A stretch of 64,000 nt of DNA, taken from contig CAVXWP010000016.1 of NCBI GenBank assembly GCA_963765495.1, positions 224,001 to 288,000 on the forward strand, written 5' to 3'. The translations under genes and the position numbers were made by a program. The notes below the pieces were generated by a model that made no database searches, was not told where the DNA came from, and worked only from the letters and a program-made list of their open reading frames with translations. This document shows positions 12,717 to 21,981 of the stretch, one piece after another; the stretch's first letter is position 1, and every line of letters starts with the position of its first letter. Source of the stretch: Blastocatellia bacterium. Its GTDB lineage: Bacteria; Acidobacteriota; Blastocatellia; UBA7656.

Positions 12717-13392
12717 CGAGGAAACTGGTTCGGCTGCTGCGGCCAGTGCACCCGGACTATTCTTACTTGAAGAAAGTCTTTCAGCACACCCGCGAACTGC
12801 TCCAAGTACGGCCCGGCAAAGTGGAGAAGCGCTTACCGGAGTTGCTGACGGATGAGGAACTATTGGCGTTTTACGAAGCGGTCTGGAACGCTCGCCAGCC
12901 CGTCCATATGGTGATGATCAAGTTGCTGATCTTCACCGGAGTCAGAAACGCCGAACTCGCTAGTGTGCGCCTGAAAGATGTGGACCTCAACAACTGTCAA
13001 CTGCGGATCGAGCAAGGCAAGGGGAAGAAGGATCGTAACGTGCTGTTTCCGAAAAGCTTTCGTGGCGAGTTGGCGCAATATCTGGGCAGCCAGAAAGAGA
13101 AAAGGCGACTCATCTGTTCGAGTCGAATCGCTTCCAGCCGTACTCGACGCGCCGCATTCGGCAGATCGTCAAGCAGTATGCGCTTGAAGCCGGCATTGAG
13201 AAGCGCGTCTATCCACACTTGTTCCGGCACCAAATCATCACCTATCTGAGCAAACGAGGAATCATCAGTCCGAAACTGCAACTGCTAAGTGGGCATGTAG
13301 AAGAAAAAAGTCTGGCGATCTATCGCGATCTAGCCTTGTCAGATGTGGCGGGTGAATATGAAGAGGCGATGCGGACGTTTCCGGTCCGGTAA
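12713..13392 (+). pseudogene. Tyrosine recombinase, frameshifted near 13103 and fused to the Tn3 fragment
   Basis: TGVRNAEL, GKGKKDR; the other frame continues HLFESN...PHLFRH...LSGH...LAIY...TFPVR*. Confidence 0.85.
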
Positions 13393-13715: not shown

Positions 13716-15085
13716 TCAACGGAAGTTTTCGACCAGCATTAGGCTGCCGTTGTGAGATCCCTCCGCTTGGGTAAAGAGGATGGAGCGACGATCGGGCGAA
13801 ACCGCAAAACTGTTAGAGAGGTTTTCTTCCTTCATCCCGGCGATCTTCGTAAGCTTGCTAGTCCGGTGTGTGGCAAAATTGAAGAAGCAAATACCAATGT
13901 CATTCTTCGCCCATGGGCAAAGGAAATAAATACCATCGCTCACTACGGCCCAATAGCGCGACATTCCCAGTGAATTGCAGGACTCACAAACCAGGGTTTC
14001 CTCGCCGCCCTCTATTGGTACACGCCAAAAGCCATTGAAGCGCTCCTTAGTGTAATAGACAAACCTGCCATCAGTTGACTCGAAAGCCGCCAATCCACCG
14101 TGCCTGGTTAGCTGCACGGCCCCGCCTCCCTGGGCTGGCATTTTCCACAGCTGATAATCTCCACTGCGCCTGGAAGCGAAGTAAATCCACTGCCCATCTC
14201 TGGACCAGCTCGGAATATTGTCATCGGCAGCATCGGTAGTGAGGCGGCGCGGTGGGCCACCTTCGGCGCTGGCCACGTAAATGTTCCAGTCACCATTTGC
14301 TTGACAGTCGAAAGCGATCTGCCGTCCATCGGGAGACCAGTGTGGGCTTCCTGCCCACTCGCTCAGGAAGGTGAATTGAGCCGGGTTTGAACCATCGCTA
14401 TTGCATGTCCATATCTCCGAGAACCCGGAGCGATCGCTCGCGAAGGCGACTCTTTGGCCATCAGAAGAGAATTGAGGGTCACGCTCGCCTTCCGTCGATG
14501 AGACGAAACCTACCGGTAGACTAGGCTGGCCTGTTGAAGCTGGTAGCTCAAGGCGGTAGATGCTTAACTTACCACCCCATTGGGTGTAGGCCAGGCGATG
14601 CCCTCTACTAGAAACGGCTACGGAAAACGCTCTGTCTCCGCCCACTGCAAGACGCTCGGGAGTGCCACCGACAATGGGAATTCTCCACAAGGCGCTATGG
14701 GAGATCGGGCTGGCGAGACGACTCGACGAGAAGATGATTTCACGGCCATCCGGAGTCCAGGCCGCTCTATCGATGTGCGCATTATCGAAGGTCAGCCGTT
14801 TGGGCTGGCCGCCCGTTATGGGCACCAGATAGAGATCTCCCAATCCTGTAGTGTCGACAGTTGTGTGGCGCACAAAGGCCAGCGTCTGACTATCTGGAGA
14901 GAAGACTGGAGAGGAATCTCCTGCAGACTGCGCGGGCGGAGATGTCAGAGTGCGCCTTTCTCCCGTCTCCAGCGAAAACAAGAGAATGCCGGCAGGGTCC
15001 TCCTGTGAGACTCGGTGCGAGGACGCGATGAACTTGCCATCAAGAGACCAGTCGAGTGTAGGCCACAAGTGCCAATTAACAGGAC
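13716..15085 (-). pseudogene. 3' part (TolB/PD40 beta-propeller) of a wHTH-TM-TolB regulator split by the IS110 insertion
   Basis: Repeated WSPDG/FSPDS PD40 motifs; rejoins 16888-17791 in frame. Confidence 0.9.
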
Positions 15086-15087
15086 CT

Positions 15088-15396
15088 GCTCTGAAAATAA
15101 AAGGGGTGCTAAATGTTGATAACGAGTAGATGAAGACAAACAACTCCGAGCCTGTGCGATATTACTTCTGCACAGCTTCATCAAACTGGTTGTCGGTAGG
15201 GCATTGGTTAATAAGCATGAGTCTGCTCTACGTGCTCAAAGGCAACAATTCGGGGTACCAGAAATATGCCCAGGTCAAACTGCTATACAGGCTCGAAGCA
15301 CCAAGGACCGTTCGACCTTCATACCGACATACAAAATTCTATCATGGCTCTCACACATTTTCATCATTCGAAGGTGAGCCGCAGGCTCATGATGAA
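15088..15396 (-). mobile_element. Non-autonomous IS110 satellite (bridge-RNA-only mini-element)
   Basis: Bounded by CT cores at 15086-87 and 15397-98; repeats the IS left-end scaffold and the right-end motif TTATTTTCA.AGCAG; no transposase. Confidence 0.8.
15200..15350 (-). ncRNA. Second bridge/seek RNA-like module (satellite); boundaries approximate
   Basis: Scaffold AGGTC...CCTTGGTGC...AGTTTGAC.TGGG...TTGTTGC...GAGCACG...CCAATGCC is shared with 16680-16840, with different guide segments. Confidence 0.7.
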
Positions 15397-15424
15397 CTGC
15401 TATGAAAATAAGAGTAGGTGTTGA

Positions 15425-16663
15425 TCAGGCAGCTTGCTCGACCTCTTCAACAGTTACTCTCAAGCCCGTCCCCTCAAGCTGTCGGATTAATCTTCGCCGC
15501 TGCTTCTCTACATTCCTTTTGTCCAGATAATCTACTCCCAACTCTTTGTAACCGGCTCTCTCTTCTAAGACGTGATATACAATCACAAGTATCGAATGTG
15601 CTATTGCTACCAGCGCCTTCTTCTTCCCCATTCTCTTGACCAGCCTTTTGTACTTCGCTGCAAGGAAACAATCCTTCTGATGCGTTGCTGCCCAGGCTGC
15701 CTGCACAAGGGCTGCTTTTAGATAGCTATTGCCCTTTTGGGTTCTTCCACTCTTTCGTTTTCCTGCCGATTGATTATTACTGGGACAGATCGAAGCCCAA
15801 CTTGAGAGATTCTTGTCTGTTGGGAAGCAGCTCATATCTACTCCAATCTCAGAGACAATGATCTGGGCTAAGGTCTTTGCGACTCCTGGAATAGAATCGA
15901 GAAGCTCAACAGCTTGCTTAACAAAAGGGTCTGGGGAAGTTTCGACCTCCTGGCTGATCTTCTCTTCAACCCTCTTAATAGAGGATTCAACCGAGTCATA
16001 CTGATCGAGGAGTTCTTTAAGAATCCAGCGTTGGGCAGAAGTGAGGCGACCGTGCAAAGCACGCTTCAAGTCAGCCTTCTTACGCTTCATCCTCCGACGA
16101 GCAAGGTCGCTGATCTTGTCAGCATCGGTTTGACCATCAGCCAAAGCTCTCAGCATCAGCCTGCCGCTAACCCCCAAAGCATCACTAGCGACTTGAGCGA
16201 GCTTGATATTGGCGCTTTCAATCAACTTCTGAATGCGATTGGCAAGAGCAGTCTGCTCACGGATAAGGCTCTGGCGGTAGCGAGTCAAATCCCTGAGTTC
16301 ACGGATATGAGGAGGAGGGATAAAGCTGGGACGAAGCAGACCGTGACGAAGCAGGTCAGCAAGCCACTCACAATCCTTAACATCAGTCTTTCTGCCAGGA
16401 ACAGCTTTGACGTGGCGGGCATTAACCAAAATAACCTCCAGGGAGGATTCGAGGATATTGAAAACAGGCTTCCAGTAAACGCCAGTACTTTCAATAGCGA
16501 CGTGAGTGCAGCCTTGAGAAGTGAGCCAGTCGAGCAGGGCAAGCAAATCATCAGTCATGGTTGAGAAAGTGCGAACCTCTTTGTTGCCGTCAGTGATGAG
16601 GCAGGCGACAACGGTGCGAGCGTGAACATCAATACCACAGCAAGAGTTGTAAAGAATCTGCAT
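15425..16663 (-). CDS. IS110-family DEDD transposase/recombinase (412 aa)
   Basis: GIDVH, AIESTG, KTDVKD, SIPGV, PSNNQSAGK (catalytic Ser region); AAAGGAG RBS before the ATG at 16663. Confidence 0.96.
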   Translation of the reverse strand: MQILYNSCCGIDVHARTVVACLITDGNKEVRTFSTMTDDLLALLDWLTSQGCTHVAIESTGVYWKPVFNILESSLEVILVNARHVKAVPGRKTDVKDCEWLADLLRHGLLRPSFIPPPHIRELRDLTRYRQSLIREQTALANRIQKLIESANIKLAQVASDALGVSGRLMLRALADGQTDADKISDLARRRMKRKKADLKRALHGRLTSAQRWILKELLDQYDSVESSIKRVEEKISQEVETSPDPFVKQAVELLDSIPGVAKTLAQIIVSEIGVDMSCFPTDKNLSSWASICPSNNQSAGKRKSGRTQKGNSYLKAALVQAAWAATHQKDCFLAAKYKRLVKRMGKKKALVAIAHSILVIVYHVLEERAGYKELGVDYLDKRNVEKQRRRLIRQLEGTGLRVTVEEVEQAA

Positions 16664-16679
16664 GATAGAACTCCTTTCG

Positions 16680-16840
16680 GCATTGGCGGGGAGCCTCAAA
16701 ACAAAAGAGACTGCTATGCGTGCTCGAAGCAACAAGTTGTGATGCCTGAAAAGGCTCCCCAAGTCAAACTAACGACCGGGCTAAAGGCACCAAGGCCCGA
16801 CGACCTATCAGCCAATGACCAGAAGGAAGGATACATAAAC
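16680..16840 (-). ncRNA. Bridge/seek RNA of the IS110; boundaries approximate
   Basis: Non-coding region upstream of the transposase contains TCGTTAG (matches the target flank) and CATAGCAGT (matches the element's own right end). Confidence 0.78.
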
Positions 16841-16887
16841 TCTCAGACATTTTCATCCGTCGTGAAGAAGCCTTGCTTCATGGATGC

Positions 16888-17791
16888 CTAACGAGAGTAA
16901 TTTGCGCTCAGTGCCGCCGGTTGCGGGCACGGTGAAGATGGTCCACTCTTTTTCCCAATTGCGCACAAAAGCGATTTGCTGACCATCGGGTGACCAAGTT
17001 GGATATAGGTCTAACCCTGGGAAGGTGGTAAGTCGCAATGCTCTTTCCCCACCGATTGATTTGACGTAGATGTCCCAGTTGTCGTTCTTCTCGCCGAACC
17101 AACGAAAGGCTATCTGGTTACCATCCGGCGAGAAAGCAGCGGCGTCATGGTCACCGATCTCGGTCGTGAAGGGTAGAACCTTCATCGGCGGCAGCGGGGG
17201 GACGAAATTATGCCGGGAAAAGTAGAGCCCTACTATGCTGCTGATGGCTAACAGCAACCCTATAGGCCATATGAAGGTCTTCGCCCGCCACCAAGGACGA
17301 CGGTACGAGGTTGAAGGCGCCTCGTTAGCAACGACTACGGCTTGTGGTGGGATCAATACCGTGTGTGGTAAGACGCCCTCTTCCGTTTCAGCAGTTGTCT
17401 CCTCTTCAATAATGACGCTTGCTCTGGTGAGTCTTTGCAATAACACCTCAGTCACTTCCTCCGTAAGCTCTCTCACGCTAGCCACAAATCGGTAGCCTCG
17501 CTTGGGAACCGTTTCAATGTATTGCGCAGTGTTCTTACTCTCACCCAAAGCCTTCCTCAGCGTCGAGATATTGTTGGCCAGATTGTGCTCTTCGACAAAG
17601 CTATCCGGCCATAGAGTCTTCAGCAGTTCCTCCTTTTCAACCAAGTGGCCGCGGCGCTCGACAAGCACCACGAGGGTTTCAAAGGCCCTCGGAGTCAGCG
17701 CCACAGGCCCGCCATCGCGCAAGAGCAGGTGTTCTGCGACGTCTAAGCGAAAAGGGCCGAATTCATATAAACACTTTGATTGATTTCTCAT
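16888..17791 (-). pseudogene. 5' part (CadC/OmpR-type winged helix, TM segment, first PD40 repeats) of the IS110-split regulator
   Basis: YEFGPFRLD, LWPDSFVEE.NL...LRKAL, IETVPKRGYRF, hydrophobic helix, FSPDG. Confidence 0.9.
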
Positions 17792-17807
17792 ACCGCCTCT
17801 CCGAAGG

Positions 17808-17850
17808 TCTGGAGAATTTTTGGACACTTTTTGGATAACTTTCTGAAGAC
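17808..17850. promoter_or_regulatory. 11-bp-phased direct repeats, putative wHTH operator
   Basis: TGGA at 17810, 17821 and 17832 with T-rich spacers, between divergent genes. Confidence 0.5.
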
Positions 17851-17985
17851 TTCCAAACTGCCTTTCGATTACTGTCGTCCGCGAGGTGAACAATGACAGG
17901 AAGTGATGTTCAGTTCAGTAATCCTTGTGCTACCCGCATTGTACTGCAAAGCGGAGCGTGGGGCAAAACATTCGGAGGTGGGGTG

Positions 17986-21297: not shown

Positions 21298-21981
21298 ATG
21301 TATTGTCTACTTCCTTCTCGCCTCATTCAGGAGCTCGCTTTCCTACAACAGTCCAGCAAAAACCAGTTGATTGCTTTCCTGAGCCTGTTGCAAGCGCGTA
21401 ATTATGCCCTGGCAACTCTGGAGGCCATCGTAGTCGCCGTACGCTCCCTGGTGCTTTCTTCGCCAGATCAGCGCAAGACCCTTCTTGCCTGTGATCTCAC
21501 ACAATCAACCTCTGCAGATATCGACCGCCTCATTGATGCGGCCCGATCACGAGGACTTGCCGCCTCGACCATTAATGGCCATCTCAGTATGCTCAAGGAA
21601 CTTTTCGACTTCCTGCATGAAAATGGTCAGATGCAAACTCAGCCCGTTATTCGTCGCCGCCATCGCTTACCTGCGCCGATGACACTGCCAAAACCGATGG
21701 CCGAAGCCGACCTTGCAGCCTTCTTCAAAGTTATCGATTCCATCCGAGATCGGCTGCTGTTTCTACTCATGCTGCGTTGCGGATTGCGCGTTTCTGAAGC
21801 CTGTTCTTTGACCTGGAATGACGTTGATCTCGAAGCCTCAAGCATCCGCGTCAATAACGGCAAAGGCCAGGTTGACCGCGTCGTCTATATTGCCCCGGAT
21901 GTCGAGAAGGCGTTGCAACTCGCTAGGCGCATCAGGGGCAGCGCATTCCGAGAATTGAGATTTGAGATGAGCGAGGGGTAA
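21298..21981 (+). pseudogene. XerC/D-like tyrosine recombinase, C-terminally truncated
   Basis: ASTINGHLS, RDRLLFLLMLRCGLRVSE, GKGQVDRVV; lacks HxxR and the catalytic Tyr. Confidence 0.85.

Follow-up and report, generated by a model that had tools for sequence, protein, structure and literature searches.

In Pseudomonas putida KT2440, the IS110-family element ISPpu9 is directly followed downstream by MITEPpu9/ssr9, a transposase-less small-RNA unit (PMC12288879). This unit is called a selfish, hitchhiking element similar to MITEs (miniature inverted-repeat transposable elements) that uses the transposase of the insertion sequence (IS), and circles were detected of the IS alone, of the unit alone and of both together (PMC12288879). 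It has also been reported that DNA is added stepwise directly downstream of IS110 elements, that tandem non-coding units keep left-donor matches and that sub-elements form circles (10.64898/2026.08.14.744561). This pattern has been attributed to half-match recombination, with one-sided recognition by the resident donor loop (10.64898/2026.08.14.744561; 10.64898/2026.08.31.748434). In the bridge RNA of IS621, the target loop comes first, and the left guides are in top-strand sense and include the core (PMC11208160); dinucleotides called the "handshake guide" have been named for the bridge-RNA system (PMC13626964). Finally, attC sites are known as targets of two IS1111 members, ISKpn4 and ISPst6 (the "IS1111-attC group"; PMC11187229). 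Here we describe a related locus in a 64,000-bp stretch of DNA from a Blastocatellia bacterium (contig CAVXWP010000016.1, referred to as the window). In this locus, a full IS110-family element, IS-A, is followed by a 309-bp non-coding unit, the satellite (SAT), which has a bridge-RNA scaffold of its own with one guide that equals the right end of IS-A.

Anatomy of the insertion

The source genome (G000) is available as a 7.3-Mb assembly of 17 contigs, with the window on contig C16. A gene for a protein with Trans_reg_C and PD40 domains is interrupted in the window by an insertion of 1,802 bp (15086-16889), which consists of IS-A and, head-to-tail behind it, SAT. The element strand is the minus strand, on which the order is host 5′ half, AG, IS-A, AG, SAT, AG, host 3′ half; on the plus strand the core reads CT at all three joints (15086-87, 15397-98 and 16888-89). 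When the two host halves are joined over a single AG core, the reading frame continues without interruption (...RKLLSLGPVNW...), and thus the 1,802 bp have been inserted without any other change. An earlier reading of the window from its sequence alone (the sequence-only reading) had proposed two tandem units delimited by three CT cores. This is confirmed by the coordinates and by the uninterrupted host frame, and every string and coordinate that it gave was found to be correct when the sequence was read again. The joint between IS-A and SAT is also crossed by a separately built Logan contig of 1,839 nt, which spans 15086-16894 with 0 differences and whose run is probably the source sample of the assembly. 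An assembly chimera, a concern raised together with the sequence-only reading, is therefore very unlikely. Among the contigs of this one DNA run, a type of data that cannot reveal circles or excision, joints of circles were not seen.

Elements in the 7.3-Mb assembly were located by BLAST and their flanks were then read, which resulted in four kinds of elements. SAT is present in six copies at five loci, with 99.4-100% sequence identity, and its three open reading frames (ORFs) match 0 families in Pfam. It aligns with the leader of IS-A over about 200 nt with a mean column identity of 69%; beyond the aligned part, SAT has about 100 bases more and ends in TTATTTTCAGAGCAG, while IS-A ends in TTATTTTCATAGCAG. 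Common to both are the left-end hairpin, a conserved box and a right end of the type TTATTTTCA(G/T)AGCAG. SAT also occurs at loci without IS-A and in the genome of another genus (G002). With six near-identical copies, a full two-loop scaffold and no Pfam family in its ORFs, SAT is by all signs in its sequence a real mobile element, namely a transposase-less, multi-copy IS110 derivative; the sequence-only reading had taken it for a transposase-less satellite.

The RNA scaffold was analyzed with a covariance model (R1) that was trained on 20 IS-linked bridge RNAs, with SAT left out. R1 covers SAT over 162 of 162 positions with 95.7 bits (E about 1e-23 genome-wide), and the SAT copy from G002 scores 92.1 bits; the two-loop scaffold common to IS-A and SAT, for which a covariance model had been suggested as a check, is thus upheld. 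Five helices could be read from the alignments: a closing stem, two loop stems and two apical hairpins. The target loop is surrounded by GGTC/GACC and has the apical hairpin TGG(T)GC/GCCCG, while the donor loop is surrounded by a long stem and has the apical hairpin TGT(T)GC/GCACG with a variable insert. In 79 model-aligned RNAs, 92.9% of the cells pair, compared to 72.4% upon shuffling and 32-46% with slid partners, and compensatory changes on both sides are found in 26 of 29 pairs; the alignment had been fitted to the model, which favours these figures. The SAT RNA is 60% identical to that of IS-A, 65% to that of a second autonomous element, IS-B, and 83% to that of SAT from G002. Its closing and donor-loop stems are kept by compensatory pairs relative to IS-A and IS-B (GTCGGT/ACCGAC, GGGCAT/ATGCCC). 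Both long stems were missed by RNAalifold on MAFFT alignments; inspection by eye revealed them, and the model-based alignment bore them out. A search of the region 14500-17500 against Rfam did not reveal a bridge-RNA family, the sole match being a eukaryotic long non-coding RNA which occurred by chance (E 0.044, below gathering). R1 also matches two distant relatives in which the scaffold is located downstream of the recombinase gene, as in IS1111-like elements (L065:2479-2631, L066:2737-2887).

A sigma-70-like promoter is predicted upstream of the SAT scaffold. The promoter scan found 2 sites where 1.3 are expected, so that the SAT site is weak on its own; with its TG-n-TAGAAT it is the sole call on the minus strand of the window. 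The conserved GATGAAAAT box represents the -35 part of the sigma-70-like site, and many relatives have TAnnnT 17 nt downstream of it. A scan for terminators called none, including the tail hairpin of SAT.

Guides and the sites that they spell

The meaning of the guide slots was read from 80 loci encoding recombinase relatives, with about 30 related IS110s showing the rule. The leaders of these relatives contain GAGCCCG followed by a variable 7-8-mer (slot 1), and (G/A)AGCACG followed by another one (slot 2). Slot 1 corresponds to the left flank plus core, for example TTAGTTAG in L015-L017, GCTGTCAG in L026, TTTTGTAG in L033, TGCGACAG in L052 and TGCACCAG in L071-L074. Slot 2 corresponds to the right end of the element itself, where the 8-mer is regularly preceded by TTC. 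Most of the foreign ends were located with the guides themselves and thus the slot identities are partly circular there. This does not apply to IS-A, IS-B and SAT, for which the ends were set independently by copy comparison and from the empty host site. In addition, the two bases after slot 1 equal the first two bases of the element in 81% of 37 distinct elements (z 6.4 and 7.4). SAT complies with this handshake rule, and the dinucleotides fit those described for bridge RNAs (PMC13626964).

All four left-half slot identities claimed for IS-A and SAT by the sequence-only reading hold. On the plus strand, slot 1 of IS-A (CTAACGA, 16769-75) equals the host flank (16888-94), and its slot 2 (ACTGCTATG, 16710-18) equals the IS-A right end (15396-404). 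Slot 1 of SAT (AACTGCTAT, 15278-86) equals 15395-403, again at the right end of IS-A, and slot 2 of SAT (CTGCTCT, 15223-29) equals the end of SAT itself (15086-92). Within the genome, slot 1 of IS-A is identical to the left flank plus core in all five IS-A copies (TCGTTAG in four, TTGTTAG in one), and slot 2 of SAT (AGAGCAG) is identical to its own right end in five of the six copies, the sixth having a mutated end. Among the 79 aligned RNAs, a right-end-like slot 1 is found only in IS-B, in SAT (plus a duplicate row), in SAT from G002 and in the second element of locus L026.

The positions of the SAT copies correspond to this guide to a large extent. Five of the six copies are located directly behind an IS110-type right end, which belongs to IS-A in two cases (C16 and C9:39272), to a first micro-element (...CATAGCAG) and a second micro-element (...CAGAGCAG) in one case each, and to another SAT in the tandem pair C9:46133-45515; the left neighbour of the sixth copy is an attC-type site. 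Slot 1 of SAT is equal to the end of the left neighbour in three copies, differs by one mismatch in two and does not match in one. While ATAGCAG occurs 545 times in the genome, SAT is found on three of the six TTTTCATAGCAG right ends and on none of the other sites. The site follows the element's own guide in five of five IS-A copies (..GTTAG), and five of six SAT copies lie behind right ends.

IS-B is present in three copies; its identity to IS-A is about 67.5% at the DNA level and 69% at the protein level. Its slot 1 reads ATAGCAG, followed by CC, the first bases of IS-B itself, and matches an IS-A-type right end; its slot 2 (CATAGTAG) equals its own right end. One IS-B copy is located directly behind a SAT right end, in a train of micro-element, SAT and IS-B (C9:30166-32056). 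The two micro-elements, with about 89 bp (C9:30166-30254 and ~C9:46222-46134), consist of the left-end hairpin, a GA(T/C)GAAAAT box and a right end, and are devoid of the RNA scaffold. Both of these guide-less elements are found at ..CGTTAG.

Many of these copies are clustered in an array at C9:20-48 kb, with two IS-A (one interrupted), IS-B, four SAT and the two micro-elements, including the trains micro-SAT-IS-B and micro-SAT-SAT. The array also has a weak scaffold match (C9:47790) and, at C9:33553, the remnant of an IS110 that is interrupted by an IS3-like element.

SAT-type units are rare among the genomes searched. SAT DNA was matched in three of 61 genomes, which are G000, G002 and G026, the latter with a 41-nt match to the left end. 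R1 was matched in 12 of 53 family genomes, and compact SAT units were found among these only in G000 and G002. Twelve R1 loci were inspected (11 from other genomes and C9:33553), and seven of them, besides SAT from G002, are without a downstream recombinase match. Five of these seven are clearly not compact (two keep the tnp start, one is cut by an IS and two are without a right end); the remaining two are L100 and L104. A regular expression for the scaffold, which detects only 35 of 82 loci, found a second scaffold within 1.5 kb only in L071, and a metagenome scan with a SAT-specific gapped pattern had 0 matches.

The SAT copy in G002 is 79% identical and is located inside a gene, at GTCATAGT-AG-AAGTAG. 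Removal of its 312 bp restores an ORF of 418 aa and thus the right-end look-alike at this site is native host sequence. No match to the IS-A protein or to PF01548 was found in G002 (98% complete, 160 contigs) or in G026, both of which are fragmented so that absence is not shown. In L026, from an Entotheonellaceae metagenome-assembled genome, a first IS110 ends with ...GATTTTCAGAGCAG and is directly followed by a full second one. Slot 1 of the second element reads CAGAGCAG plus TG, its own first bases, and it is located directly behind the right end TTTTCAGAGCAG of the first, while its donor guide (AAGGAGAG) is unlike the end behind which it sits. Judged by these strings, L026 adds an independent example in which the target loop corresponds to the end of another IS110. 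The right end was located in about 50 foreign elements, and only in this one is it directly followed by another left end.

In metagenomes, a 20-mer from the left-end hairpin of SAT was found at 69 loci, 54 of which have the ATGAAAA box. Many have a right-end-like TTTTCnnnnCAG 70-260 nt downstream, and R1 matches one of the 69. A widespread family of short MITE-like elements (L122-L190) is apparent here, with the left-end hairpin TCATGAGCCTGCGGCTCACC, the ATGAAAA box and TTTTCnnnnCAG right ends, which are often stacked. Another element of about 270 bp (L003:1499-1770, G026:C148), located at ...AAAAGTTAG, combines a SAT-like left hairpin with the right end TTTTCATAGCAG, and the scaffold is not matched in it; its genome, G026, has no IS110 recombinase match.

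Table 1. Features of the insertion and of related loci. Positions refer to the window unless a contig is given; sequences of guides are in RNA sense.
Feature	Position	Strand	Remarks
Host gene 3′ half, PD40 beta-propeller repeats	13716..15085	-	Pfam PD40 E 1e-32
Core CT (AG), outer right joint SAT right end / host	15086..15087	.	dinucleotide common to three joints
SAT, 309-bp non-autonomous IS110 derivative	15088..15396	-	left end, promoter-like site, bridge RNA, tail hairpin, right end
SAT right end (left donor, LD) ...TTTTATTTTCAGAGC, then core AG	15088..15102	-	equals SAT slot 2
Tail hairpin, stem CTGTGC/GCACAG, downstream of SAT bridge RNA	15150..15176	-	G002 copy: stem kept, loop different
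SAT bridge-RNA scaffold: closing stem, target loop, donor loop	15184..15333	-	R1 1-162/162, 95.7 bits
SAT slot 2, left donor guide TAGAGCAG	15223..15230	-	equals SAT's own right end TTTTCAGAGCAG
SAT slot 1, left target guide ATAGCAG + handshake TT	15278..15286	-	equals IS-A right end ...CATAGCAG + SAT's first bases TT
Sigma-70-like promoter of SAT (predicted): -35 ATGAAA, 17 nt, TG-n-TAGAAT	15336..15364	-	9/12 matches
SAT left end with hairpin TTCATCATGAGCCTGCGGCTCACC	15373..15396	-	its internal 20-mer marks 69 metagenome loci
Core CT (AG), common to IS-A right end and SAT left end	15397..15398	.	sequence reading
IS-A, complete IS110-family element, 1,489 bp excluding cores	15399..16887	-	5 genome copies, one interrupted
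IS-A recombinase gene, 412 aa	15425..16663	-	PF01548 E 1e-34, PF02371 E 8e-21
IS-A bridge RNA	16675..16821	-	R1 104.6 bits; member of R1 training set
IS-A slot 2, left donor guide CATAGCAG	16711..16718	-	equals IS-A right end TTTTCATAGCAG
IS-A slot 1, left target guide GTCGTTAG	16769..16776	-	equals left flank + core
Core CT (AG), left joint host / IS-A left end	16888..16889	.	sequence reading
Host gene 5′ half, Trans_reg_C and first PD40 repeats	16890..17893	-	Trans_reg_C E 2.7e-18, PD40 E 2.2e-15
Integron-integrase genes	C6:263576-264514, C3:315777-316718, C17:4162-5100		adjoin attC-type arrays

How SAT may have come to lie behind right ends

We consider it rather likely, though far from certain, that SAT is a MITE-like descendant of an IS110 element which has lost the recombinase and has been inserted in trans behind IS-A-type right ends via its own target loop. 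With the loss of the recombinase gene, the element would have retained both ends, a complete bridge RNA and, between the ends, a promoter-like site. The SAT RNA would be transcribed from its own promoter and would load onto the recombinase of IS-A or IS-B, supplied in trans. The donor loop (AGAGC-AG, the right end of SAT itself) would hold the joint of a SAT circle. The target loop would hold ...ATAGC-AG, as is typical for the right ends of attC-targeting IS110s in this genome, with a handshake corresponding to the first bases of SAT. The substrate could be a right end in the chromosome or the circle junction of the helper. Exchange at AG would place SAT seamlessly behind the right end, leading to trains such as IS-A::SAT, and SAT could afterwards travel with the helper, stay behind upon excision of the helper, or stack on itself. 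Transcription of SAT, recombinase supply in trans and site choice by its own target loop are what we infer from the sequence. As to the order of events, SAT may have been inserted behind a resident IS-A or into an IS-A circle, IS-A may have been inserted before a resident SAT, or the pair may have been inserted as a unit. In a more general form, some natural bridge RNAs would be programmed against other bridge-RNA elements and would direct insertion behind their right ends, with SAT as the minimal form; to this wider proposal we assign slightly less than an even chance.

Several observations weigh against the insertion of SAT by its own target loop. The solo SAT at C2:561583 is located at an attC-type site (...CTCCTCGTTAG) which fits the guide of IS-A and not that of SAT. 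The sequence-only reading had asked whether such units always abut IS110 right ends, and had proposed that SAT homes to, rides on or inhibits its helper. Abutment and homing are both in accordance with five of the six copies, and the latter also with the identity of slot 1 to a helper-type right end, but the attC copy departs from both. Precise IS-A excision from a composite accounts for this copy, or else its insertion with the RNA of IS-A. Slot 1 of the G002 copy (TATAAGCAG) fits the flank (GTCATAGTAG) only partly, and two of the three IS-B copies have no recognisable right end in front of them. On the right side, the likely target guide is the 5′ strand of the target loop. For IS-A, this candidate (GGGCCT) predicts AGGCCC, and flanks of GCTC, GCGC and GCCC are seen; for IS-B (AGCCT), it predicts AGGCT, and GCT is seen in three of three copies. 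For SAT (GGTCCT), it predicts AGGACC, which is a poor fit to flanks of GTCC, GCTC, GCCC and others. Covariation between right-half columns and flanks in 37 elements did not exceed z ~4 in any case, while the high left-half scores of this test are circular, the ends having been located with the guides. The right-half guide matches put forward by the sequence-only reading could thus be confirmed neither by eye nor by covariation. Finally, among the metagenomic loci with the SAT left-end hairpin, a right-end-like TTTTCnnnnCAG stands immediately before the left end in 15 of 65 cases, from 13 contexts, where 0.14 are expected for random positions. As nearly all of these relatives are devoid of a bridge RNA, head-to-tail stacking does not need a retargeted guide in the stacked unit; the RNA of a helper, or two donor loops, may be enough.

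This last point leads to an alternative that we consider unlikely but which deserves attention. SAT may have been stacked by half-matches between two donor loops, or it may have spread as the tail of an IS-A::SAT composite, and its target-loop guide would then be inherited or secondary and would not choose the site. Donor-only recognition, between two donor-binding loops (DBL-DBL), was reported to be enough for excision, and half-matches to explain many off-targets (Xie et al.), while tandem non-coding units beside IS110 (n = 468) show almost exclusively left-donor matches (Hu et al.). The ISPpu9 circles of tnp alone, of ssr9 alone and of both are consistent with half-match stacking as well as with a composite, and so are, for half-match stacking, the stacked relatives just described, of which nearly all are without a bridge RNA. 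However, half-match stacking leaves unexplained why slot 1 equals the right end of the neighbour in SAT, in IS-B and in the second element of L026, whereas the norm in this clade is the left flank. The stacked element of L026 has a donor guide that differs from the end behind which it is located. In addition, IS-A (none of five) and the micro-elements (none of two) are not found behind right ends in this genome, although they would be equally expected to stack. The solo SAT at the attC site fits excision of IS-A from a composite, but SAT has four kinds of left neighbour and thus a single ancestral composite is not enough. Target-loop retargeting and half-match stacking may also act together.

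We judge it improbable that SAT is kept as a regulatory RNA, acting as a recombinase decoy or as an antisense-RNA sponge in analogy to the proposal for Ssr9/Asr9, with mobility as a side effect. In ISPpu9, Ssr9 is complementary to the antisense RNA Asr9 and was proposed to counteract it (PMC12288879). The promoter-like site of SAT is the best of the three elements and the sole call on its strand, and its predicted scaffold for recombinase binding is complete. But an identity of only 60-65% to the bridge-RNA regions of IS-A and IS-B is low for an antisense sponge, the SAT guides are specifically set to real DNA ends, and transposition is evident from the copies in G002 and at new loci. A regulatory role is compatible with the insertion of SAT by its own target loop, so that the two are not exclusive.

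An assembly artefact, or local duplication with deletion in one IS-A copy, can practically be dismissed: the elements are indeed repeats in a 17-contig assembly, and a loose end of the Logan contig reflects repeat-graph ambiguity at the SAT right end, but the IS-A/SAT joint is found twice (C16 and C9), SAT occurs at five loci with different flanks, the separately built contig crosses the joint, a diverged copy exists in another genus, and a SAT RNA that is only about 60% identical to the IS-A bridge RNA is not a recent deletion product.

Target sites, related elements and known systems

IS-A belongs to the IS110 family, with DEDD (RuvC-like) and Tnp domains in its 412-aa product. All five copies have an AG core at both joints and a left flank ending in ..GTTAG. 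This flank is part of a repeat of about 60 bp (...GCGCGCCGCTGAA(C/T)TCGTCGTTAG|GC...), and the 12-mer TCGTCGTTAGGC occurs 58 times in the genome, clustered on C2, C3, C6, C9 and other contigs. Clusters on C6, C3 and C17 are adjoined by three genes for integron integrases, which score 475-487 bits at a cut-off of 265, and we take the motif GTTAGGC to fit the attC core consensus. Three of the five IS-A copies, the solo SAT and at least one micro-element are located in attC-type repeats, while the IS-A copy in the window is at a look-alike site in the host gene (CTCGTTAG|G). As far as can be read from these sites, IS-A targets integron attC sites. Many relatives also have a slot 1 ending with GTTAG, and the full predicted target of IS-B, ATAGC-AG-GCT, equals the right joint that IS-A makes at an attC site. 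This places an IS110-type clade and its short derivatives inside chromosomal cassette arrays, with trains of elements building up at attC sites.

Large chromosomal integron cassette arrays are found at C2:6-60 kb and 570-604 kb, C3:319-326, C6:265-277 and C9:7-47 kb. In the window, weak tyrosine-recombinase-like matches flank the insertion on either side (12773-13326 and 21385-21924, corresponding to C16:236773-237326 and 245385-245924), with scores of 52-59 bits, which is under the cut-off for integron integrases.

Some further observations concern single elements. IS-A departs from the handshake rule: its slot 1 is followed by TT while its own first bases are GC (16767-16776 and 16882-16887, respectively). 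TT corresponds to the first bases of SAT, and the joint of the solo SAT at the attC site, TCGTTAG|TT, fits the target loop of IS-A in nine of nine positions. One of the IS-A copies is split by an insert of 1,096 bp, which was considered as a possible related element but turned out to be an unrelated degenerate one. The IS-B copies at C2:5331-3841 and C1:176315-174825 have a common right flank (GCTCGCG), and their left flanks (GCAACAG and ACCACAG) mismatch the guide; in the C2 copy, the left-end hairpin is about 8-10 bases short. Upstream, earlier elements may have left short and decayed remnants. In another genome, an IS110 is inserted within the recombinase gene of another one (L045:1700-1935, CAZUFQ010000472.1), at GTGTACTGGAAG, which encodes the conserved GVYWK motif. 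With CTTGGAAG as slot 1, the inserted element appears to be aimed at the coding sequence of its own family.

If it is the target loop that picks the site, bridge-RNA elements would parasitise each other by RNA guidance. A guide-only element and at least two autonomous ones would use the end of another element as a safe landing site, at no further cost to the host. SAT, with about 310 bp for a promoter, a guide RNA and two ends, would then parasitise the recombinase of its helper as well as its landing site. This would offer a guide-based explanation for boundaries with left-donor matches only at expanded IS110 loci and a testable mechanism for the growth of such loci behind the right end, and it would provide natural examples of a bridge RNA that is supplied apart from the recombinase gene.

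The sequence-only reading knew of no description of such an arrangement, but ISPpu9/MITEPpu9 (PMC12288879) and the tandem units (10.64898/2026.08.14.744561) were already in print. The architecture is thus known from ISPpu9, and the retargeted target loop is the part that we did not find in print. Neither a bridge-RNA-only element with a target loop set to the end of its helper nor autonomous IS110s programmed against the end of another IS110 were found in the literature searched, which included few subscription journals and was without supplements.

As far as the accessible description goes, ISPpu9/MITEPpu9 resembles IS-A/SAT in that copies of the IS end boxes lie on both sides of the unit, with AG at the joint. 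Linked, solo and tandem copies exist in both systems, and solo copies are found at the IS's own type of target, which is a REP sequence for ISPpu9 and attC here. Ssr9 can be compared with SAT by its description only; there it is treated as a partner of Asr9 and not as a bridge RNA with guides of its own, and the accessible part of the report (PMC12288879) does not describe retargeting to the right end of the IS. SAT and IS-A agree with IS621 in having a two-loop RNA with the target loop first, left guides in top-strand sense including the core, and a handshake dinucleotide, and IS-A also in the position of the RNA upstream of the DEDD/Tnp recombinase gene (PMC11208160; PMC13626964). The core on the element strand is AG here and CT in IS621, the scaffold differs from that of IS621 in sequence, and SAT is without any recombinase gene. 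With the IS1111-attC group, IS-A and many of its relatives have in common the left guide ending in GTTAG and the attC-type sites. The layout of IS1111 was considered for IS-A and rejected: IS1111 elements have the RNA downstream and subterminal inverted repeats, while in IS-A the RNA is located upstream of tnp, as is typical for IS110. The reports on expanded IS110 loci trace the pattern to the donor loop of the resident element, whereas here SAT, as the added unit, and two autonomous elements have the neighbour's right end spelled out in their target loop.

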